This document shows, piece by piece, positions 3,638-28,396 of a stretch of 64,000 bases of DNA. The DNA comes from a virus. Under the pieces are notes generated by a model. It made no database searches. It had not been told where the DNA came from and saw only the letters and a list, made by a program, of their open reading frames with translations. Each line of letters opens with the position of its first letter. Within the stretch, counting starts at the first letter, position 1. The position numbers and the translations under genes were made by a program. The DNA is taken from the IMG/VR virus record IMGVR_UViG_3300022220_000003, positions 29,467 through 93,466 of that record, one strand, 5' to 3'.

Positions 3638-4032
3638 CCATGTTCGTTGTTGGGTGGCGCTGCGGGTGCGGTTGCGAGACCTTGCACCGCATGTATCTGA
3701 AAACCTCACAGGAGGCCTTGGCGCTAACGGTGCAGCTCCGCGATAGCACCGCCACCGAGACCTGGGTGTGGCGAATGCGACTCCCGCGGCGCAAGGAGGC
3801 GATCCTAGTGGCGCTCAACTACTGCTGTGGGGCTCGATATCGAGCTCGAGGGGGAGCTCGAGCAGCTCGCGCACCTAGTGCGATCCGATTGGGAGGCCGA
3901 GGCGGAGGCCGAGGAGCCGACGCACGGCGAGGGCCCGCCCGGTGGCCGAGGAGCCGACGCACGGCGAGGGCCCGCCCGGAGGCCGAGGAGCCGACGCACG
4001 GCGAGGGCCCGCCCGGTGGCGAGTTTCATTGA
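3631..4032 (+). CDS. Hypothetical protein, possibly frameshifted and repeat-expanded
   Basis: Overlaps the upstream stop; C-terminal part crosses the 37-bp repeats. Confidence 0.45.
   Translation: MLTMFVVGWRCGCGCETLHRMYLKTSQEALALTVQLRDSTATETWVWRMRLPRRKEAILVALNYCCGARYRARGGARAARAPSAIRLGGRGGGRGADARRGPARWPRSRRTARARPEAEEPTHGEGPPGGEFH
3907..4017 (+). repeat. Tandem repeat, 3 x 37 bp
   Basis: ggccgaggagccgacgcacggcgagggcccgcccgg(t/a) at 3907, 3944, 3981. Confidence 0.95.
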
Positions 4033-4039
4033 GTGGCCT

Positions 4040-4055
4040 TGGCCCGCGGATTGCA
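4040..4055 (+). promoter_or_regulatory. sigma54-type promoter of the Fis-HTH gene
   Basis: TGGCCC-GCGGA-TTGCA; ATG 4068 lies 14 nt after the -12 C, the same offset as at 2147 and 7297. Confidence 0.6.
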
Positions 4056-4067
4056 AGGAGATCGGAT

Positions 4068-4310
4068 ATGACGAAAAAGGTATCCAAAACCACCCGAAAT
4101 GGCCATTTACTTGGACGGTTAGTCCGTGACGCGGAAAAGGCCATTATTATCCAATACATAGCCAAGCATCGCGGAAACAAGACCCACGCGGCCGAGGCCC
4201 TCGGGGTGACGCACCGGCATTTGCAGCGGCGGTGCGTGGCGCTCGGTATCGAGGGGGCGGACCTCGAGGGCGGCAACGTGGGTGTTGTAATCGTGGGCGG
4301 GCTTGTGTAG
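4068..4310 (+). CDS. Stand-alone Fis-family (HTH_8) DNA-binding protein
   Basis: AEKAIIIQYIAKHRGNKTHAAEALGVTHRHLQRR fits the E..xI..aL....GN...AA..LG..R.tL pattern of Fis/NtrC C-terminal domains. Confidence 0.85.
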   Translation: MTKKVSKTTRNGHLLGRLVRDAEKAIIIQYIAKHRGNKTHAAEALGVTHRHLQRRCVALGIEGADLEGGNVGVVIVGGLV

Positions 4311-4945: not shown

Positions 4946-5326
4946 TTAATCCTGTTGGTTGCGGTCGCGGTCTCGGTCTAGGTCGCGGTCGCGGTCGCGG
5001 TCGTTTGGTCTCGATTTGTTCCGTATCCGGGCCAGGAGTGGTCCGGTCTCGTTTTCGGGCGGGGTTTCGAGCGGTGGGAGGTGGTCTCGTATGCCCGGGC
5101 GCCTTGGGCCACTGTAGCGGCCGGTATTCATGCGTTCAAATGGCCAAATCGAGTAGGCCTGGCCCGTGTCGGACTCGGCGAGGTCTGGGGTTACTTTCTC
5201 GAGGGTGTGGGGCCTCGTTTTGCACTGGCATACCGGGCAACGGATCTTGGTGGTCACGAGGTGGCACCGGTGGCACGTAGGGGCCGTGAAATAGGATCCG
5301 ATCGTGGTGTTGACGGGGCTCGGCAT
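4946..5326 (-). CDS. Zn-ribbon protein with an Asp-Arg repeat tail
   Basis: CHRC...CPVC; GAGGTG RBS; tail DRDRDRDLDRDRDR encoded by a 6-bp repeat at about 4961-5003. Confidence 0.6.
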   Translation of the reverse strand: MPSPVNTTIGSYFTAPTCHRCHLVTTKIRCPVCQCKTRPHTLEKVTPDLAESDTGQAYSIWPFERMNTGRYSGPRRPGIRDHLPPLETPPENETGPLLARIRNKSRPNDRDRDRDLDRDRDRNQQD

Positions 5327-5424
5327 ACTGCACCTCGAGGGGTTGATTGGGGGCAGCTTATCACGGGCTCGGGTGGAGGTTTACTGGCATGGTGTGACGT
5401 CACGATGTGTCAGGTTGTTGTGTA

Positions 5425-5440
5425 TGCATACACGATGCCA
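5425..5440 (-). promoter_or_regulatory. sigma54-type promoter
   Basis: Minus strand TGGCAT-CGTGT-ATGCA(TAC), upstream of the 5326 ORF. Confidence 0.55.
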
Positions 5441-6003
5441 AAAAATAATGTTCTGGGTTATTGGGGGGTTAGGTGGAGGGTATGGCGGGCTTTGTCAGGC
5501 TGTTTGGATGATGTGGTGCGTCATTGAGGTGGGGTTGGCGGTTTGGGGTTATTTAGGTGGGTTGTTGTCGATTTGGTTGATTGAAAAAGTGGTGTGTTTG
5601 TAGGGGTTTACAAGGGGGGCTTGACGTGACTTGTCAACGTTTTTCGAGGCGTAACGATTACAGGTAGTTAGCTACTTATGTAAGTGGTTATGGAAGTGGT
5701 GGGATGTGTCGAGTTGTGACAGGTGGCGGTGTAAGTCGGTGTAATCGTTGCGGTATTGGTATGGGAGGGCGTGGGGGGTGATTGGGTGTCTCGATTTGTG
5801 GACAGTGTTGCGGTTCCGAGTGTCTTGATTTGTGGACAGGGGTGGCGAAATTTCGCCAGGGGGGTTTTGGGGGTTTTGAGGGGGTGGGGTGAGGGATTGA
5901 GTTAGGGGGTGGGTTTGCGGCGGTTTTTGGGGCCTTAGGGGGCTTGTCACGTGGTGGTGTAGGGTGGTGGGGAGGTGTTTCGGTTGGTGGGCACGGCGGG
6001 AGA

Positions 6004-6085
6004 TGTGCACCATTTTGGAGCAGTTGGTGAGGGGTGTGCACCATTTTGGAGCAGGTGGGGTGAAATGTGCACCATTTTGGAGCAG
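6004..6085. repeat. Three 20-bp direct repeats at 31-bp period containing NtrC-like boxes
   Basis: tgtgcaccattttggagcag at 6004, 6035, 6066. Confidence 0.9.
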
Positions 6086-6377
6086 TTACAGGTTGGTGAG
6101 GTTGAGGGTATAAGGTTTTGTTATAGGTGGGTAGTGTTTTTGGGCGGTTTACTTATGGGTTTTGGGGGGTTGGGGGTTGTTTGTGGGCGGCCCGCGGCGG
6201 GGTGGACGCGACCGGCCTCGGGCCGGGCCTGGTGCTGCGGTGTAGGCCCCGCCCGCACCTCCGCACCGCTCCGCCCCTAAGCCCCGTCCTGTGCAGCTCT
6301 CGAAGAGCTCCCCGGCCTCGATCTCGGTTCCCAGTGGTTCGTCCCTATGGGAGCTCGAGCTCGGCGAGCCGTGCGAC

Positions 6378-6725
6378 CTAACGAGGGCCAACACCGTACA
6401 CACGGCGGTCGAGGGCGATCCGCAGCTCGGCATGGACGCGTTTGGCAACCTCAAACTTGGTGGCCGCGTCGTTGAGCTCGGCGTTAGTCTCGCCGCCCAT
6501 GAACATGGCCCACAAGCTACCAACGCCCCCGGTGGCGTCTGCGATAGCTCGCTTACGCTCGGCCGCCTCCTCAACCTCGGCCGCGGCCTCGGCGATGGCC
6601 TTGGCGAGCTCGGCACGATAGATAAGCTCGGCGCTACGGTCGGTGCCCGCGGCGGCCCGGTAGGCGGCCTGGGTGTTCTCGACGACGGTGGCGAGGGCGG
6701 CGGCGGTGGTAATAGTCTTGGTCAT
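6378..6725 (-). CDS. Hypothetical alanine-rich helical protein
   Basis: GAGGA RBS before ATG 6725 (MTKTITTAAALAT...). Confidence 0.65.
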   Translation of the reverse strand: MTKTITTAAALATVVENTQAAYRAAAGTDRSAELIYRAELAKAIAEAAAEVEEAAERKRAIADATGGVGSLWAMFMGGETNAELNDAATKFEVAKRVHAELRIALDRRVYGVGPR

Positions 6726-6736
6726 GGTCTCGATCC

Positions 6737-6868
6737 TCAGAGCACCACCGCGGCGGCGGCCTCGTTGCGGGCGGCGAGCTTGGGGCGGCGGGTGCCCTCG
6801 CCACCGACAACCAAGACCACAATCGCGACCACCGCGATAACTGCCTTGATTGTCTTGTTGCGTGTCAT
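6737..6868 (-). CDS. 43-aa membrane-anchored peptide, probably leaderless (not in the ORF track)
   Basis: MTRNKTIKAVIAVVAIVVLVVGGEGTRRPKLAARNEAAAAVVL; ATG at the promoter palindrome. Confidence 0.6.
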   Translation of the reverse strand: MTRNKTIKAVIAVVAIVVLVVGGEGTRRPKLAARNEAAAAVVL

Positions 6869-6896
6869 GCATACTTAGTATACAACAACCGTGCCA
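6868..6896 (-). promoter_or_regulatory. sigma54-type promoter plus palindrome (variant -12 TTGT)
   Basis: Minus strand TGGCAC-GGTTG-TTGTATACTAAGTATGC-ATG. Confidence 0.65.
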
Positions 6897-6943
6897 GAGC
6901 TCGGGGGTGGCACGGCGGGTGCAACTCGAGGAGGGCGACACAA

Positions 6944-7268: not shown

Positions 7269-7297
7269 TGGCATCAGGGTTGCATACTAAGTATGCA
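7269..7297 (+). promoter_or_regulatory. sigma54-type promoter plus palindrome
   Basis: TGGCAT-CAGGG-TTGCATACTAAGTATGC-ATG. Confidence 0.8.
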
Positions 7298-7980: not shown

Positions 7981-8130
7981 GGCCACCACCTGGTCACCTG
8001 GCACACCACCTGGTCGCCTGGCACACCACCTGGTCACCTGGCACACCACCTGGTCGCCTGGCACACCACCTGGTCACCTGGCACACCACCTGGTCGCCTG
8101 GCACACCACCTGGTCGCCTGGCACACCACC
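7981..8130. repeat. Tandem repeat, about 7.5 x 20 bp (gcacaccacctggtcRcctg), iteron-like
   Basis: Direct reading; R runs A,G,A,G,A,G,G. Confidence 0.95.
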
Positions 8131-8654: not shown

Positions 8655-8850
8655 ATCAAGTAATTAGCTCATTTCTGGAGACCAAGTCAAGGGTGGCACG
8701 CTGTCACACGATCTACTCCTTTATGGAACAACATATATATGCACCGGTGAACCTACAGTTGGTAAGTCAACCACATGAGCTTCACCGGTGCATATATCTG
8801 TTATAAGTAAAAGTATAGAACAATAGGCCACGCGTGCCAGGTGTGACACA
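8654..8850. other. Candidate replication origin
   Basis: AT-rich intergenic DNA, 17-bp perfect inverted repeat 8735-8751/8781-8797, IHF match 8654-8666, directly upstream of the primase-helicase. Confidence 0.5.
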
Positions 8851-8984
8851 ACATTTATTCAAAACGTAAAATAAAACAGGCTGTCACGCGGTGTCACGCG
8901 TGTTTTGGTCCTGTGGATCCGTATTGCGTTATTCCCAACAGTTGGCCTAGTGTCCTTGCAGCTCAAAACCTCGGGGGTGATTGA

Positions 8985-11465
8985 GTGCCAAGGGACCTAA
9001 CCCTGCTCGTGTGGGGTGACATCAAATCGGGTGATCCCAACCAAGGTAACCTGGTGACTGCACCTTGGGTTGACTGGGTTAGCGTGCTATCCACCCACGT
9101 ACGCAGGTCAACCAAAGGGGGTCCGTGCGTTGTCTGCGGTCACATCCCCAAAGGTAAACCCCGTTTGCAAATCCACGTCGAGGCCACCGACACGGTGTGC
9201 CTTGATATCGATAAGGGTACCACCGAGGAGATCGGCGAGATCCTCGAGGCCTTTGCCCCGTATGAATACGTGGCCTATACGAGCTTTAGCCATGCTCGAT
9301 ATCAGCTCGGTACCAAGGACACCCCACCGGCCCCCGGTGAGCCGACACAAACCAAGCTGCGGGTGTTGCTACCCCTAGCCCGTCGAGTAAGTGCCAAAGA
9401 ATATGAGGGGGTTTGGCCGGTGATCCAGCAGTTGGCCAAGCACCCAATCGACAAGGCAATCAAGGCTCTCAACCAAGGGTACTATTTACCGAGCGCCAGG
9501 GTCGGGGCCCCGACCCTGGCCCACCACAACAAAACCGGCCGGTGGCTCGACCCTGACAACCTCTTGCAGCTCTCGGACACCCCCGCCGAGACCTCCACCG
9601 AGCTCCCCACCGTCGAGGTTTTGGGCCGGGTCGAGACAATTATCCGCAAGCTCGCCAAAATGATACGCTCGCACCCCCTCAAGGCGGCGGCCAATGCCTT
9701 GATCAACGGCGAGCCCCTGGACTTCGGTGATGGTCGCCACGATACGATTATCCGGTTGACGGGTTGGATCGCGTTCAAAACCGAGAACAAACCTCTGCAC
9801 CCAAGCGTAATCGAGGCCTTGTTCCAACGGTCGATTGACGCAATGCGTCTTGATCGACCTCATGACATGGCATCGGTGACCATCGACGCCGCCACCGCAG
9901 CCTACGAAACCGCAATCGCCAAGGCGATTGAGATCAAGGAGGCCGAGCGTAAGGAGGCCCAAAGTCATTACGCCGGCCCGGAGTCACCCGAGTGGCCCAA
10001 AGAAACCCTCGAGCGGTGCGCCGAGGCTCAAGAATCCACCGTCGAGCAACTCGCGTTTGTTGTGGTGCGAGACCGGGCGCACTACATCCTACAACCGGAC
10101 ACCTATTTTTGCGGTCCGTTCACTGAAAAGGACGCGTTTATTGAAATCATTCAAGCTTTGGGGCGATCCCCGGTGGAGCTTTACGAGGTCACCAACTCAG
10201 GCAACTATAAACCAAGGCCATTTTTTGAGCTGATACGCCGATATGGCAGGGTAGCTCAACAAGTGGTCGCAAACCTCGCAACCCAACGGACCTATTACGA
10301 TCGCGAGCACCGCACGATCCATGAGGCCGTTTGCCCTCGCCGCACCTTCGAGCCGGTTCACAACCCAAAAATAGACCATTGGTTGCGCCTATTCGCGGGC
10401 ACGCCTGCCAATTACGAGAAGCTCCTCGATTGGATGGCCTGTTGCCCCGATCTTAACAAGTTACTTTGCGCCCTCACCTTGGCGGGAGCTCCTGGCACCG
10501 GTAAAACCTTGTTTGCCCAAGGCATGGCCAGCCTATGGGCCGAGGGTGGAGCGGCGGCGAGCCCCGAGGTGATCCTCGGTAACTTTAACGAGGACCTAAC
10601 CCGATGCCCCCTCGTATTCGCCGATGAGACCCTGCCGAAAACCTACCGGTGGGAGTCGGTGACAACCAAGCTACGGGCCGAGATTGCCTCCTTGGTGCGC
10701 ACCCTCAACCGCAAGTATTACGCCCCCTTAACCCTACAAGGGAGCCTCCGTTTTATCCTGGCGACCAACAACCCGATGATTCTCGCCAGCAACATCAGCA
10801 CCGCGGCGGATCTCAACGCGGTGGCGGTGCGATTTCTCTACCTCGAGACCGGGGCCGAGGCCGAACAGTACTTGCTCACCCTGGACCACGAGACAAAGGA
10901 CGGCTGGCGTATACACCAAATCGCGGCTCACGCCCTTTGGCTCCAACAAAACCGAGCGGTGACCCCCGCGGGCCGTTTTTGGGTCACCGGCGATCTCGAA
11001 AAAATGCACCGCCTACTCGTGACCTCATCGGATTGGAATAGTTGGGTTTGCGAGTGGATCGTCAAGGGGCTGCTAGACGGCTATCGCAAGGCGGAGCAAA
11101 ACCAAGACACGGTGGGCCGGGTGATAGTCCAGGAGGGCCACCTCTTTGTCAATATCAGTGCAGTCGCAGATGGTTGGCCCATATACACCAACTATCCCAA
11201 TATCCCCCCCGACCCGCGCAAGATCGCCACGGCCCTCCGCTCGATCTCCCTGCAACCCAAGGCCGTCCAAGTTCGCACCCCCGGCGGGACGCGGCACCGC
11301 TACTTTGACATTGACCTAAACCACCTCGTGGCGTGGGCGGATGAGAAGGGGATCTGCGGAGCACCCGAGATCGAGCTCGCAATCCACCAAGGAATCACCG
11401 AGCGGCCCAAGATCGTCAATCTGAACGAGCACCGGAACAAAGGAAAGGATCAGCCACAGCAATGA
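8985..11465 (+). CDS. Primase-helicase (AEP-type primase, PriCT-like region, SF3 helicase)
   Basis: LDID, YTSFSH, KLRVLLPL; GRHD; Walker A GAPGTGKT, Walker B VFADE, motif C ILATNN. Confidence 0.85.
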   Translation: MPRDLTLLVWGDIKSGDPNQGNLVTAPWVDWVSVLSTHVRRSTKGGPCVVCGHIPKGKPRLQIHVEATDTVCLDIDKGTTEEIGEILEAFAPYEYVAYTSFSHARYQLGTKDTPPAPGEPTQTKLRVLLPLARRVSAKEYEGVWPVIQQLAKHPIDKAIKALNQGYYLPSARVGAPTLAHHNKTGRWLDPDNLLQLSDTPAETSTELPTVEVLGRVETIIRKLAKMIRSHPLKAAANALINGEPLDFGDGRHDTIIRLTGWIAFKTENKPLHPSVIEALFQRSIDAMRLDRPHDMASVTIDAATAAYETAIAKAIEIKEAERKEAQSHYAGPESPEWPKETLERCAEAQESTVEQLAFVVVRDRAHYILQPDTYFCGPFTEKDAFIEIIQALGRSPVELYEVTNSGNYKPRPFFELIRRYGRVAQQVVANLATQRTYYDREHRTIHEAVCPRRTFEPVHNPKIDHWLRLFAGTPANYEKLLDWMACCPDLNKLLCALTLAGAPGTGKTLFAQGMASLWAEGGAAASPEVILGNFNEDLTRCPLVFADETLPKTYRWESVTTKLRAEIASLVRTLNRKYYAPLTLQGSLRFILATNNPMILASNISTAADLNAVAVRFLYLETGAEAEQYLLTLDHETKDGWRIHQIAAHALWLQQNRAVTPAGRFWVTGDLEKMHRLLVTSSDWNSWVCEWIVKGLLDGYRKAEQNQDTVGRVIVQEGHLFVNISAVADGWPIYTNYPNIPPDPRKIATALRSISLQPKAVQVRTPGGTRHRYFDIDLNHLVAWADEKGICGAPEIELAIHQGITERPKIVNLNEHRNKGKDQPQQ

Positions 11466-26929: not shown

Positions 26930-28396
26930 ATGCCCGAGCCGATCCCAATGCTCCCCAGCGGTGACGCCTTGGCCGACGCCGGGCGGGATGCATTGATCGA
27001 CTATTACGACCATTGCAAATCGATGGCCGGCGAGTGGGTCTATCGCCAGGTGGTGGATAACTGCCGGGCGGATATCTTGGCGGCGATCCTCGGGTATGAG
27101 GTGCAGCCGTTTCATTTGGCCCTGATGGTGTTTCAAATGCTGCACCCCGACAATTTGCAGCTCTGTTTTCGGGGTGCAGGCAAAACCACCGTTTGCACGG
27201 TGACCCGGGCGATCTTTATGCTGATCCGCAACCGGGACTTGCGGATCCTCATAGCCTCGAAAACCAAGGGCAACGCCGAGAGCATGCTCAAGGAGATCAA
27301 GGGACACCTCGAGGAAAACCAGCGACTGATCGAGGTCTTTGGGTTGTTTTACGATCCGGCGGTGGTGACCAAATGGGATAACACCGAGATCGAGATCCTC
27401 GGGCGCAGCCGCAAGACCAAAGAGAGCTCGATCATAGCAATCGGTGTTTCGGGTGCCTTGGCCTCCAAACACGTTGACGTGATCTTGGCCGATGACTTGG
27501 TGGACGAAGAAAACGCCCGTACCAAGTATATGCGAGACCGCGTCAAGCAGTGGTATTATCAGATCTTGGATCCGGTCCTCGAGCCACCCGAGCCCGGGTT
27601 TTTGCACCGCGGTGAGTTTCACCGGTTGGGGACCAGATATCATTTTGATGACCTATACGGGCATCTGATGTCGAATGAGCTCAAGGAGCACCACCAAGTG
27701 ATCCCCGCGCTCGACTCAAACGAGCGCAGCCCGTGGCCCGAAAAATTTCCGCCCGATTGGTTCAAAGCCAAAAAGGAAAAATCAGGTACGATTATATTCA
27801 ACGCTCAATACCAGTGCGATACCGAGGCAATGAAGGGCGAGATCTTCCAATATGACGATTGCCAACAGGTTTCGGCTGACGACGTGCCCGCGGGTCTCAA
27901 GGTCTACATGGGTGTTGACTTGGCGATCACCGAGCAGGAACAAAACGACATGTTTTGCATAGTGGTGGGAGGTCTAGACCAGGCCGAAAACTGGTATGTG
28001 ATTGACTATTTCGAGGGCCACCTCCGATTTGCAGCCCAAACCGCGGCGATCAAGCGCTACTACAAAAAACACGATCCTATCCGGGCGGCCATTGAGACCA
28101 ATAGCTACCAGGCGGCCCAATACCAGACCCTCAAAGATGAGGATCAGAGCTTGCGGCTTATGCCGGTGCACACCGAGAAAGACAAGATCACCAGAGCTTG
28201 GAAGGTCTCACCGAGGTTTGAAAATAAGCAGATGTTTTTCGTCAAGGGGGGCAATATCCACAAGCTGATCGAGGCGATCGTTTTATTCCCCTCGCATCGA
28301 TACAAGGACCCGTTTGACGCCTTGGACATGATGCTCAGGGCCAGCAAAGTGCGTCGACGCCGCAAGCGGCGACAACGTGAACCGGGGATCATCTGA
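26930..28396 (+). CDS. terL: Terminase large subunit
   Basis: RGAGKTT, ILADDLVD, GTRYH.DD, nuclease GVDLA...D..DA. Confidence 0.95.
   Translation: MPEPIPMLPSGDALADAGRDALIDYYDHCKSMAGEWVYRQVVDNCRADILAAILGYEVQPFHLALMVFQMLHPDNLQLCFRGAGKTTVCTVTRAIFMLIRNRDLRILIASKTKGNAESMLKEIKGHLEENQRLIEVFGLFYDPAVVTKWDNTEIEILGRSRKTKESSIIAIGVSGALASKHVDVILADDLVDEENARTKYMRDRVKQWYYQILDPVLEPPEPGFLHRGEFHRLGTRYHFDDLYGHLMSNELKEHHQVIPALDSNERSPWPEKFPPDWFKAKKEKSGTIIFNAQYQCDTEAMKGEIFQYDDCQQVSADDVPAGLKVYMGVDLAITEQEQNDMFCIVVGGLDQAENWYVIDYFEGHLRFAAQTAAIKRYYKKHDPIRAAIETNSYQAAQYQTLKDEDQSLRLMPVHTEKDKITRAWKVSPRFENKQMFFVKGGNIHKLIEAIVLFPSHRYKDPFDALDMMLRASKVRRRRKRRQREPGII

Follow-up and report, generated by a model that had tools for sequence, protein, structure and literature searches.

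Three phased NtrC-type boxes in an uncultured sediment phage as a possible remote enhancer for a host activator

The window analyzed here is a stretch of 64,000 nucleotides, bases 29467-93466 of the 93,466-bp IMG/VR virus record IMGVR_UViG_3300022220_000003, which is linear, about 92% complete and derived from an uncultured sediment phage with a genome of ~93 kb. Coordinates are those of the window unless marked genome. Besides a primase-helicase (8985-11465) and TerL (26930-28396), the phage encodes ThyX, a family A DNA polymerase, a portal and a MuF-like protease fusion, and its left arm carries genes for a tail spike, an endolysin, a short tyrosine recombinase, thymidylate kinase, a methylase and ParA. 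No cultured close relative was found, all matches in phage collections being below 30% identity.

Several metagenomes of sediment and estuary origin also contain this phage at low depth; its contigs there are short, identical and free of variation, and none spans the boxes described below. When relatives were sought with the primase-helicase, only two were obtained, G001 (67% identity) and L035 (49% identity), and the search of genome contigs gave no match. Neither relative covers the box region, as the sequence of G001 breaks just upstream of the primase, leaving the region absent, and L035 has a different control system. In L035, another repeated site (ATAGTGCAG / CTGCACTAT) occurs in 5-6 copies at 530-640 and 2290-2350, together with sigma-70-like promoters. 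Thus, the sigma-54 system of the present phage is not common to the whole phage group.

The locus under study contains three short boxes in a non-coding tract.

6004-6023, unstranded: box 1, a 20-nt core identical in all boxes, with a 17-bp imperfect dyad TGCACCA-TTT-TGGAGCA at 6006-6022
6035-6054, unstranded: box 2, the identical core, 31 bp from box 1
6066-6085, unstranded: box 3, the identical core, 31 bp from box 2

A sequence-only reading of the window had noticed these as three NtrC-like boxes phased three helical turns apart, which was confirmed. The 20-nt core (TGTGCACCATTTTGGAGCAG) occurs in three exact copies (6004, 6035 and 6066) with a period of exactly 31 bp, and is absent elsewhere in the 93-kb genome. 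Within it, the 17-mer TGCACCATTTTGGAGCA is exact at 6006-6022, 6037-6053 and 6068-6084. No further copy of the 17-mer was found in the window at up to 3 mismatches (chance expectation of 0.18) or in the rest of the 93,466-bp record, and none of 100 shuffles of the window gave three copies at that tolerance. The exact 17-mer is also present once each in three unrelated viral contigs, which is at the chance level.

The cores are identical at 60 of 60 positions, while the 11-nt spacers are alike at only 5 of 11. Since the spacers would still be alike after a recent duplication, the identical cores and diverged spacers point to selection on the cores. The sequence pattern thus argues for cores held by selection, or by conversion limited to the cores. 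Containing C and A, the boxes stand as preserved islands in a plus strand that is poor in both.

The published NtrC consensus is TGCACCAnnnTGGTGCA, of which GCAnnA and TnnTGC are most conserved (PMC8743547), and the Salmonella NtrC box reads TGCACC(A/T)4TGGTGCA (PMC4987338). Each of the phage boxes fits the published consensus, which may not be that of the host, at 16 of the 17 positions with the A/T centre included, bearing out the one-base difference claimed earlier. The sole mismatch changes TGGTGCA to TGGAGCA, a T-to-A change in the conserved TnnTGC that is the same in all three boxes. NtrC motifs vary between lineages, e.g. in Caulobacter. In the glnAp2 enhancer, the site centres at −140 and −108 are 32 bp apart (PMC5159524), and the 31-bp period is indeed close to that spacing, as had been pointed out. 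Where such an enhancer calls for at least two strong same-face sites about three turns apart, the array offers three at 31 bp.

Neighbouring genes were defined by coding-potential profiles and homologues, and the following features lie around the boxes.

4946-5326, minus strand: candidate target gene, encoding a 126-aa CxxC...CxxC zinc ribbon with an Arg-Asp repeat tail
5425-5440, minus strand: nearest sigma-54-like −24/−12 box, TGGCATCGTGTATGCA then TAC (PWM 11.7)
5441-6190, minus strand: box-containing non-coding tract, part of the region upstream of gene 4946-5326
6881-6896, minus strand: cassette E leftward promoter, TGGCACGGTTGTTGTA with palindrome
7269-7284, plus strand: cassette E rightward promoter, TGGCATCAGGGTTGCA with palindrome, ~1.2 kb from the boxes

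The zinc-ribbon gene is considered real, because a gap-free homologue at 81% identity keeps the cysteines. Its Arg-Asp repeat tail is encoded by a (GGTCGC)n hexamer run at 4957-5003, at which contigs from other metagenomes break or slip (one joint 'goes back 42'), suggesting copy-number variation of the run. From the other side, the cassette E leftward operon, which encodes a small membrane protein and a 116-aa protein, runs from 6868 down to 6378 and ends ~290 bp before box 3. Therefore, the ~1,050 bp between gene 4946-5326 and the operon end at 6378 are the upstream region of the zinc-ribbon gene. Inside cassette E, an extra sigma-54-like box (TGGCACGGCGGGTGCA, 6908-6923, PWM 16.7) faces rightward, back-to-back with the leftward promoter.

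The box at 5425-5440 lies 88 nt before the ATG of the zinc-ribbon gene and is a degenerate copy of the main promoter of the phage, scoring 11.7 vs 19-31 for the main promoters; only 31 genome positions score above 10. With a predicted start near 5414, the centres of the three boxes would be at about −600, −631 and −662. It had been claimed that the nearest sigma54-type promoter is this one, about 600 bp off, and the promoter held up as real, though weak. Both strands of 5441-6880 lack any further −24/−12 candidate, and no IHF consensus was found in the stretch separating the boxes from 5425-5440. A sigma-54 promoter in cis at the usual 100-250 bp is thus lacking, the nearest being 600-662 bp from the boxes.

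The tract at 5441-6190 is strongly skewed, with 15% A, 9% C, 44% G and 33% T on the plus strand. Its minus strand, which is the transcribed one and the sense strand of both flanking genes, is C-rich and G-poor with a C/G ratio of ~4.9. Such composition is typical of Rho-loading (rut) regions. By analogy, the tract may shield the zinc-ribbon gene against read-through transcription from the cassette E operon. It may serve as a Rho-loading insulator or, alternatively, form a G-quadruplex. The plus strand carries telomere-like GGGGGTTTTGGGGGTTTTGAGGGGGTGGGG. The tract also has the dyads TTGAC-N7-GTCAA and GGCGAAATTTCGCC, as well as a 25-nt repeat found at 5786 and again 34 bp on at 5820, and a weak TTACAG-17-TATAAG was spotted by eye just after box 3. 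No Rfam families or tRNAs were found in the tract, and the GC-rich stretch at 6190-6380 folds no better than shuffled sequence.

The phage as a whole has ~13 sigma-54-type promoters vs 0.2-0.8 expected; under a strict match, nine were found vs ~0.2 expected. Five divergent cassettes have outward TTGGCAY-N5-TTGCATACTAAGTATGCA promoters, with three CTATGAC-N6-GTCATAG palindromes between each pair. Beyond the cassettes there are additional −24/−12 boxes, one of them directly before the gene of a small helix-turn-helix (HTH) protein, P0005. From these matches, the early genes of the phage are predicted to run from sigma-54-type promoters. Neither a Sigma54_activat domain nor a GAFTGA motif was found in the six frames of the phage genome. 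Having sigma-54-type promoters but no AAA+ activator, the phage would have to use host enhancer-binding proteins, and from this presumed reliance sites copying host enhancers are expected.

Outside the present genome, TATGAC-N6-GTCATA arrays occur in four unrelated viral contigs (IMG/VR L089-L092), three of which have sigma-54-like boxes beside the arrays. This suggests, as judged from the motif, that the cassette palindrome is a second host activator site copied by phages. The palindrome found on the promoters themselves has one match in unrelated viral contigs, which is at the chance level.

Two stand-alone proteins of the HTH class in question are encoded by the phage.

4040-4055, plus strand: sigma-54-like box TGGCCCGCGGATTGCA (PWM 13.9), shortly before the P0005 ATG
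4068-4310, plus strand: P0005, an 80-aa stand-alone Fis/NtrC-type HTH (Pfam HTH_8, 39.9 bits)
genome 17809-18117, minus strand: P0004, a stand-alone HTH_8 protein in the left arm (above the Pfam cut-off)

The recognition helix of P0005 (HRHLQRRCVALGI) is invariant in six homologues, i.e. across seven sequences; searches of viral and genome contigs for P0005 homologues gave no match. When its profile was compared with structures, the best match was 2m8g (E 1e-5), and the DNA-binding domains of ZraR, NtrX and NtrC4 came next. Enteric NtrC was not found among the PDB matches of P0005. Upstream of its gene, 3.2 copies of a 37-bp unit, 96% alike, occupy 3903-4020 and end 20 bp before the sigma-54-like box. 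These repeats lie inside an open frame with a period that is no multiple of three, and may represent yet another type of triple upstream site, the third in this phage.

Recurrence of the boxes in other viruses was examined in IMG/VR using as the pattern a pair of NtrC-consensus boxes separated by 8-25 nt, with A or T allowed at the deviant position. Such pairs were found in 47 viral contigs, which form 8 groups without nucleotide similarity between groups, vs 1 and 2 contigs with two control palindromes of permuted half-sites. One family accounts for 36 of the 47, and some of the 8 lineages are doubtful, as the L072 array resembles a coding repeat of 30 bp, and L043/L077 resemble contigs of giant viruses. 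Each array has 2-9 boxes, and complete genomes have a single cluster of 3-4. Box spacings cluster at 19-21, 28-32, 35 and 41-42 bp, or about 2, 3 and 4 helical turns. The T-to-A variant is present in none of the 47 other viral arrays, though the pattern admitted it.

At the loci concerned (L037-L083), the arrays are phased and consist of perfect TGCACCAnnnTGGTGCA palindromes. The largest family, of ~65 kb and including a complete genome bearing terminal repeats, has its arrays in a control region of 900 bp, flanked on one side by the terminase operon and on the other by an operon that encodes a glutamine-synthetase-like amidoligase. Lineages F1 and L080 have relatives in culture (Caulobacter phage RW and Proteus phage RS51pmB), in which no boxes were found.

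The viral boxes are associated with sigma-54 promoters. Taking agreement at 10 or more of the 11 consensus positions as a match, the density is 0.32 per kb up to 400 bp from the boxes vs 0.04 per kb in the remainder of the same loci, an enrichment of ~8-fold to which three independent lineages contribute. With a reversed sigma-54 consensus as a control, the count near the boxes was 0. In L080, which is the clearest case, two boxes 32 bp apart are ~165 and 197 bp upstream of TGGCACGACCTTTGCT, which heads an operon running into TerL, and the relatives of this TerL infect Proteus, Stenotrophomonas and Ralstonia. Neither HTH_8 nor Sigma54_activat was found in the box-array contigs, with 45 of the 47 records searched.

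Because the site recurs in unrelated phages having no Fis-type protein or activator, and is associated with sigma-54 promoters, a host protein is favoured as its reader. An identical site in unrelated phages speaks for a host protein that is conserved and against phage regulators specific to single lineages, and NtrC is the proposed binder because the published consensus of this site is that of NtrC. We consider it the likeliest reading, while granting it somewhat under an even chance, that the boxes are a docking array for a host NtrC-type protein and act as a remote enhancer. Their position upstream of a real gene with a sigma-54-like box supports the NtrC-type reading.

We conceive that the phage would borrow host activators via DNA sites that copy the enhancer sites of the host. 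The array would dock three dimers of a Fis/NtrC-type HTH protein with high affinity on one DNA face, and its likeliest occupant would be host NtrC or a close NtrC-type enhancer-binding protein. Three dimers would make up one activator hexamer, with 31 bp corresponding to about three helical turns. Upon nitrogen limitation, phosphorylated NtrC on the array could then loop to the sigma-54 holoenzyme at a phage promoter. The nearest promoter so served would be 5425-5440, leading the zinc-ribbon gene 4946-5326; alternatively, the cassette E promoters, 0.8-1.2 kb away, would be within the reach of an NtrC enhancer. NtrC enhancers are known to act over such long distances. The suggestion of the sequence-only reading that the phage may sense host nitrogen status through NtrC is partly supported in that the sequence, dyad geometry and phasing of the boxes are of the NtrC type; the bound protein, the served promoter and nitrogen status as the signal are what we infer from there.

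Several observations weaken membership of the array in the glnAp2 type. The promoter is at 4-5 times the usual distance (100-250 bp in glnAp2 and other phages), and is a weak match with no IHF consensus in between. The shared T-to-A change affects a conserved position and is absent from the other viral arrays, and NtrC motifs are not universal, so that of the host may differ. The long promoter distance by itself lowers enhancer membership rather than removing it, given the long-distance action of NtrC.

The main rival to a host NtrC-type protein is the Fis-type protein of the phage itself, a serious alternative binder in a reading that we regard as possible though unlikely. The boxes could be the operator array of P0005 or P0004, with three dimers assembling upstream of the zinc-ribbon gene into a complex that has a repressive or an architectural role. 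Otherwise, the phage protein could compete with host NtrC, the two phage proteins being DNA-binding-domain-only anti-activators against it. Both proteins score above the Pfam cut-off, and P0005, encoded 1.7 kb from the boxes behind a −24/−12 box of its own, has a profile that fits the DNA-binding domains of NtrC-family activators best. Its invariant recognition helix implies a fixed DNA target, and the T-to-A change in all three boxes could mark a specificity shifted to the phage protein. However, a cognate HTH_8 protein does not travel with the site, being present in 0 of the 45 other box-array records, so this box type needs none. The genome also offers more numerous candidate targets, namely a 17-bp palindrome on ~10 promoters and 15 cassette palindromes, while the boxes overlap no recognizable promoter: the scanner found no sigma-70 consensus at the site, and no −24/−12 box is within 500 bp. 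Nor do the PDB matches of P0005, from which enteric NtrC is missing, speak for NtrC-like specificity.

Host NtrC, or another host protein, might instead be soaked up by the array as a decoy or landing pad that serves no promoter, replicating phage genomes titrating the regulator and blunting the nitrogen-stress response of the host. The lack of a sigma-54 promoter at the usual distance would suit such a decoy, as would three complete genomes (G032, G036 and G031) that have box clusters without a good sigma-54 match nearby. We judge it improbable. Three sites per genome make a small sink, the boxes of three other lineages adjoin sigma-54 consensus promoters, and exact three-turn phasing is needed for cooperative assembly of a hexamer but unnecessary for titration alone.

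Tandem dyad repeats at periods of two to three turns are typical of oriLambda, F sopC and lambda cosB, and the boxes could in principle be replication-origin iterons, terminase (pac/cos) sites or a partition centromere. The primase-helicase is 2.9 kb downstream, ParA is encoded, and in lineages F1 and L080 the boxes are upstream of the terminase operon. Replication or packaging iterons had been named as what would overturn the NtrC reading, and they are disfavoured by the following features, which fit these roles better.

7984-8130: 20-bp direct-repeat array, unit CACCACCTGGTCRCCTGGCA, 7.3 tandem copies
8655-8984: AT-rich region with a 64-nt hairpin (z = −5.0) and TGGCAC/TGTCAC repeats, directly upstream of the primase-helicase
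genome 20032-20340: four to five repeats of ~44 bp with CCGGTATGG and GGTATCATGCC motifs, upstream of parA
genome 20382-21026: parA

The array at 7984-8130 and the AT-rich region, with a small minus-strand gene between them, both carry TGGCACA. G001 has a repeat array at the position matching 7984-8130, and the TGGCACA motifs of the AT-rich region upstream of the primase-helicase are kept in G001 and L035. These two elements are the probable replication origin, and beside the primase-helicase they have the placement of origin iterons that the boxes lack. The 30-bp start array of G001, considered as an analogue of the boxes, corresponds instead to this 20-bp array. The parA gene has its own repeats immediately upstream, followed by a sigma-70-like promoter, which together are the probable partition centromere and operator, and the boxes are 15 kb from parA. 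Single CCGGTATCATACC copies are also present in cassettes C and D. With TerL 20.9 kb off, and with one terminase or initiator specificity common to unrelated phages being unexpected, we rate these origin, packaging and partition roles as very improbable. Whatever likelihood the above readings leave falls to some other function or to none.

In a literature search, no published description of phage-borne NtrC enhancers was found. What appears new here, as predicted from sequence, is a phage-carried NtrC-type enhancer array, remote from its promoter, in combination with DNA-binding-domain-only phage proteins. Tentatively, and with more doubt than confidence, we propose that several unrelated phage lineages copy the host NtrC enhancer without an activator, and that in the present phage DNA-binding-domain-only proteins compete for the sites. 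If so, the phage would run a competition switch between the host activator and viral DNA-binding-domain-only proteins. If host NtrC docks on the array, the phage would read the nitrogen state of the host, or silence the host response, via a borrowed enhancer, and this would be a concrete mechanism linking nutrient limitation in sediment to phage gene expression. The survey suggests that the array is no one-off, the 17-bp site occurring in phased arrays, often near sigma-54 promoters, in as many as 8 viral lineages, of which two are doubtful. Phages may commonly tie gene control to NtrC, and enhancer-dependent transcription driven by host activators may be an overlooked mode of phage gene control.

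Compared with known systems, the box array resembles those of other uncultivated phages (F1, F2, L080 and others) in forming a single cluster per genome, of two to four boxes or more in those phages, in a long non-coding control region with whole-turn phasing. Their arrays often have sigma-54 consensus promoters nearby, with neither a phage HTH_8 protein nor an activator, and their boxes are perfect GGTGCA palindromes, often 10-250 bp from the promoter. The present phage, with which they share no sequence, differs in its GGAGCA variant, its remote promoter and its two Fis-type HTH genes. Within the phage, the sigma-54 cassettes are similar to the box array in that each unit has three dyads, the promoters are of the sigma-54 type and the phage supplies no activator, and the upstream-site type of the cassettes, like the box type, recurs in unrelated viral contigs beside sigma-54-like boxes. 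The cassette palindromes differ from the boxes in half-site, in spacing (66-79 bp vs 31 bp), in their distance of 70-250 bp from promoters, and in occurring in five copies of the unit, whereas the NtrC-type array is single.

P0005 and P0004 share the HTH_8 class with Fis, with the A. aeolicus NtrC-family structures 2m8g and 4l5e, and with ZraR (1ojl). The C-terminal DNA-binding domains of enhancer-binding proteins, like Fis, act as dimers on 15-17-bp dyads. Unlike these, the two phage proteins are stand-alone products of ~80-100 aa and phage-encoded, and the recognition helix of P0005 differs in alignments from those of ZraR and Fis. Lambda ori and cosB, F sopC and the P1 iterons are also short tandem repeats, some of them dyads, with periods of ~20-43 bp, but the boxes, unlike such iteron and centromere arrays, adjoin no initiator, terminase or ParA gene.

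The closest comparison is with the glnAp2 enhancer. The phage has three identical sites, in contrast to two strong and three weak sites in glnAp2, and all its copies carry one changed conserved T. Its nearest −24/−12 box is 600-660 bp off, compared with 108-140 bp in glnAp2, and the predicted array sits on a phage genome without an activator gene. On the other hand, the boxes share with sites I and II of E. coli and Salmonella glnAp2 the 17-bp dyad of the TGCACCA-N3-TGGTGCA form with an A/T-rich centre, and in both systems, set in the context of sigma-54 promoters, strong sites follow each other at ~32 bp on the same face of the helix. The glnAp2 enhancer is read by dimers that build a hexamer, and by analogy the phage array is supposed to be read in the same way.
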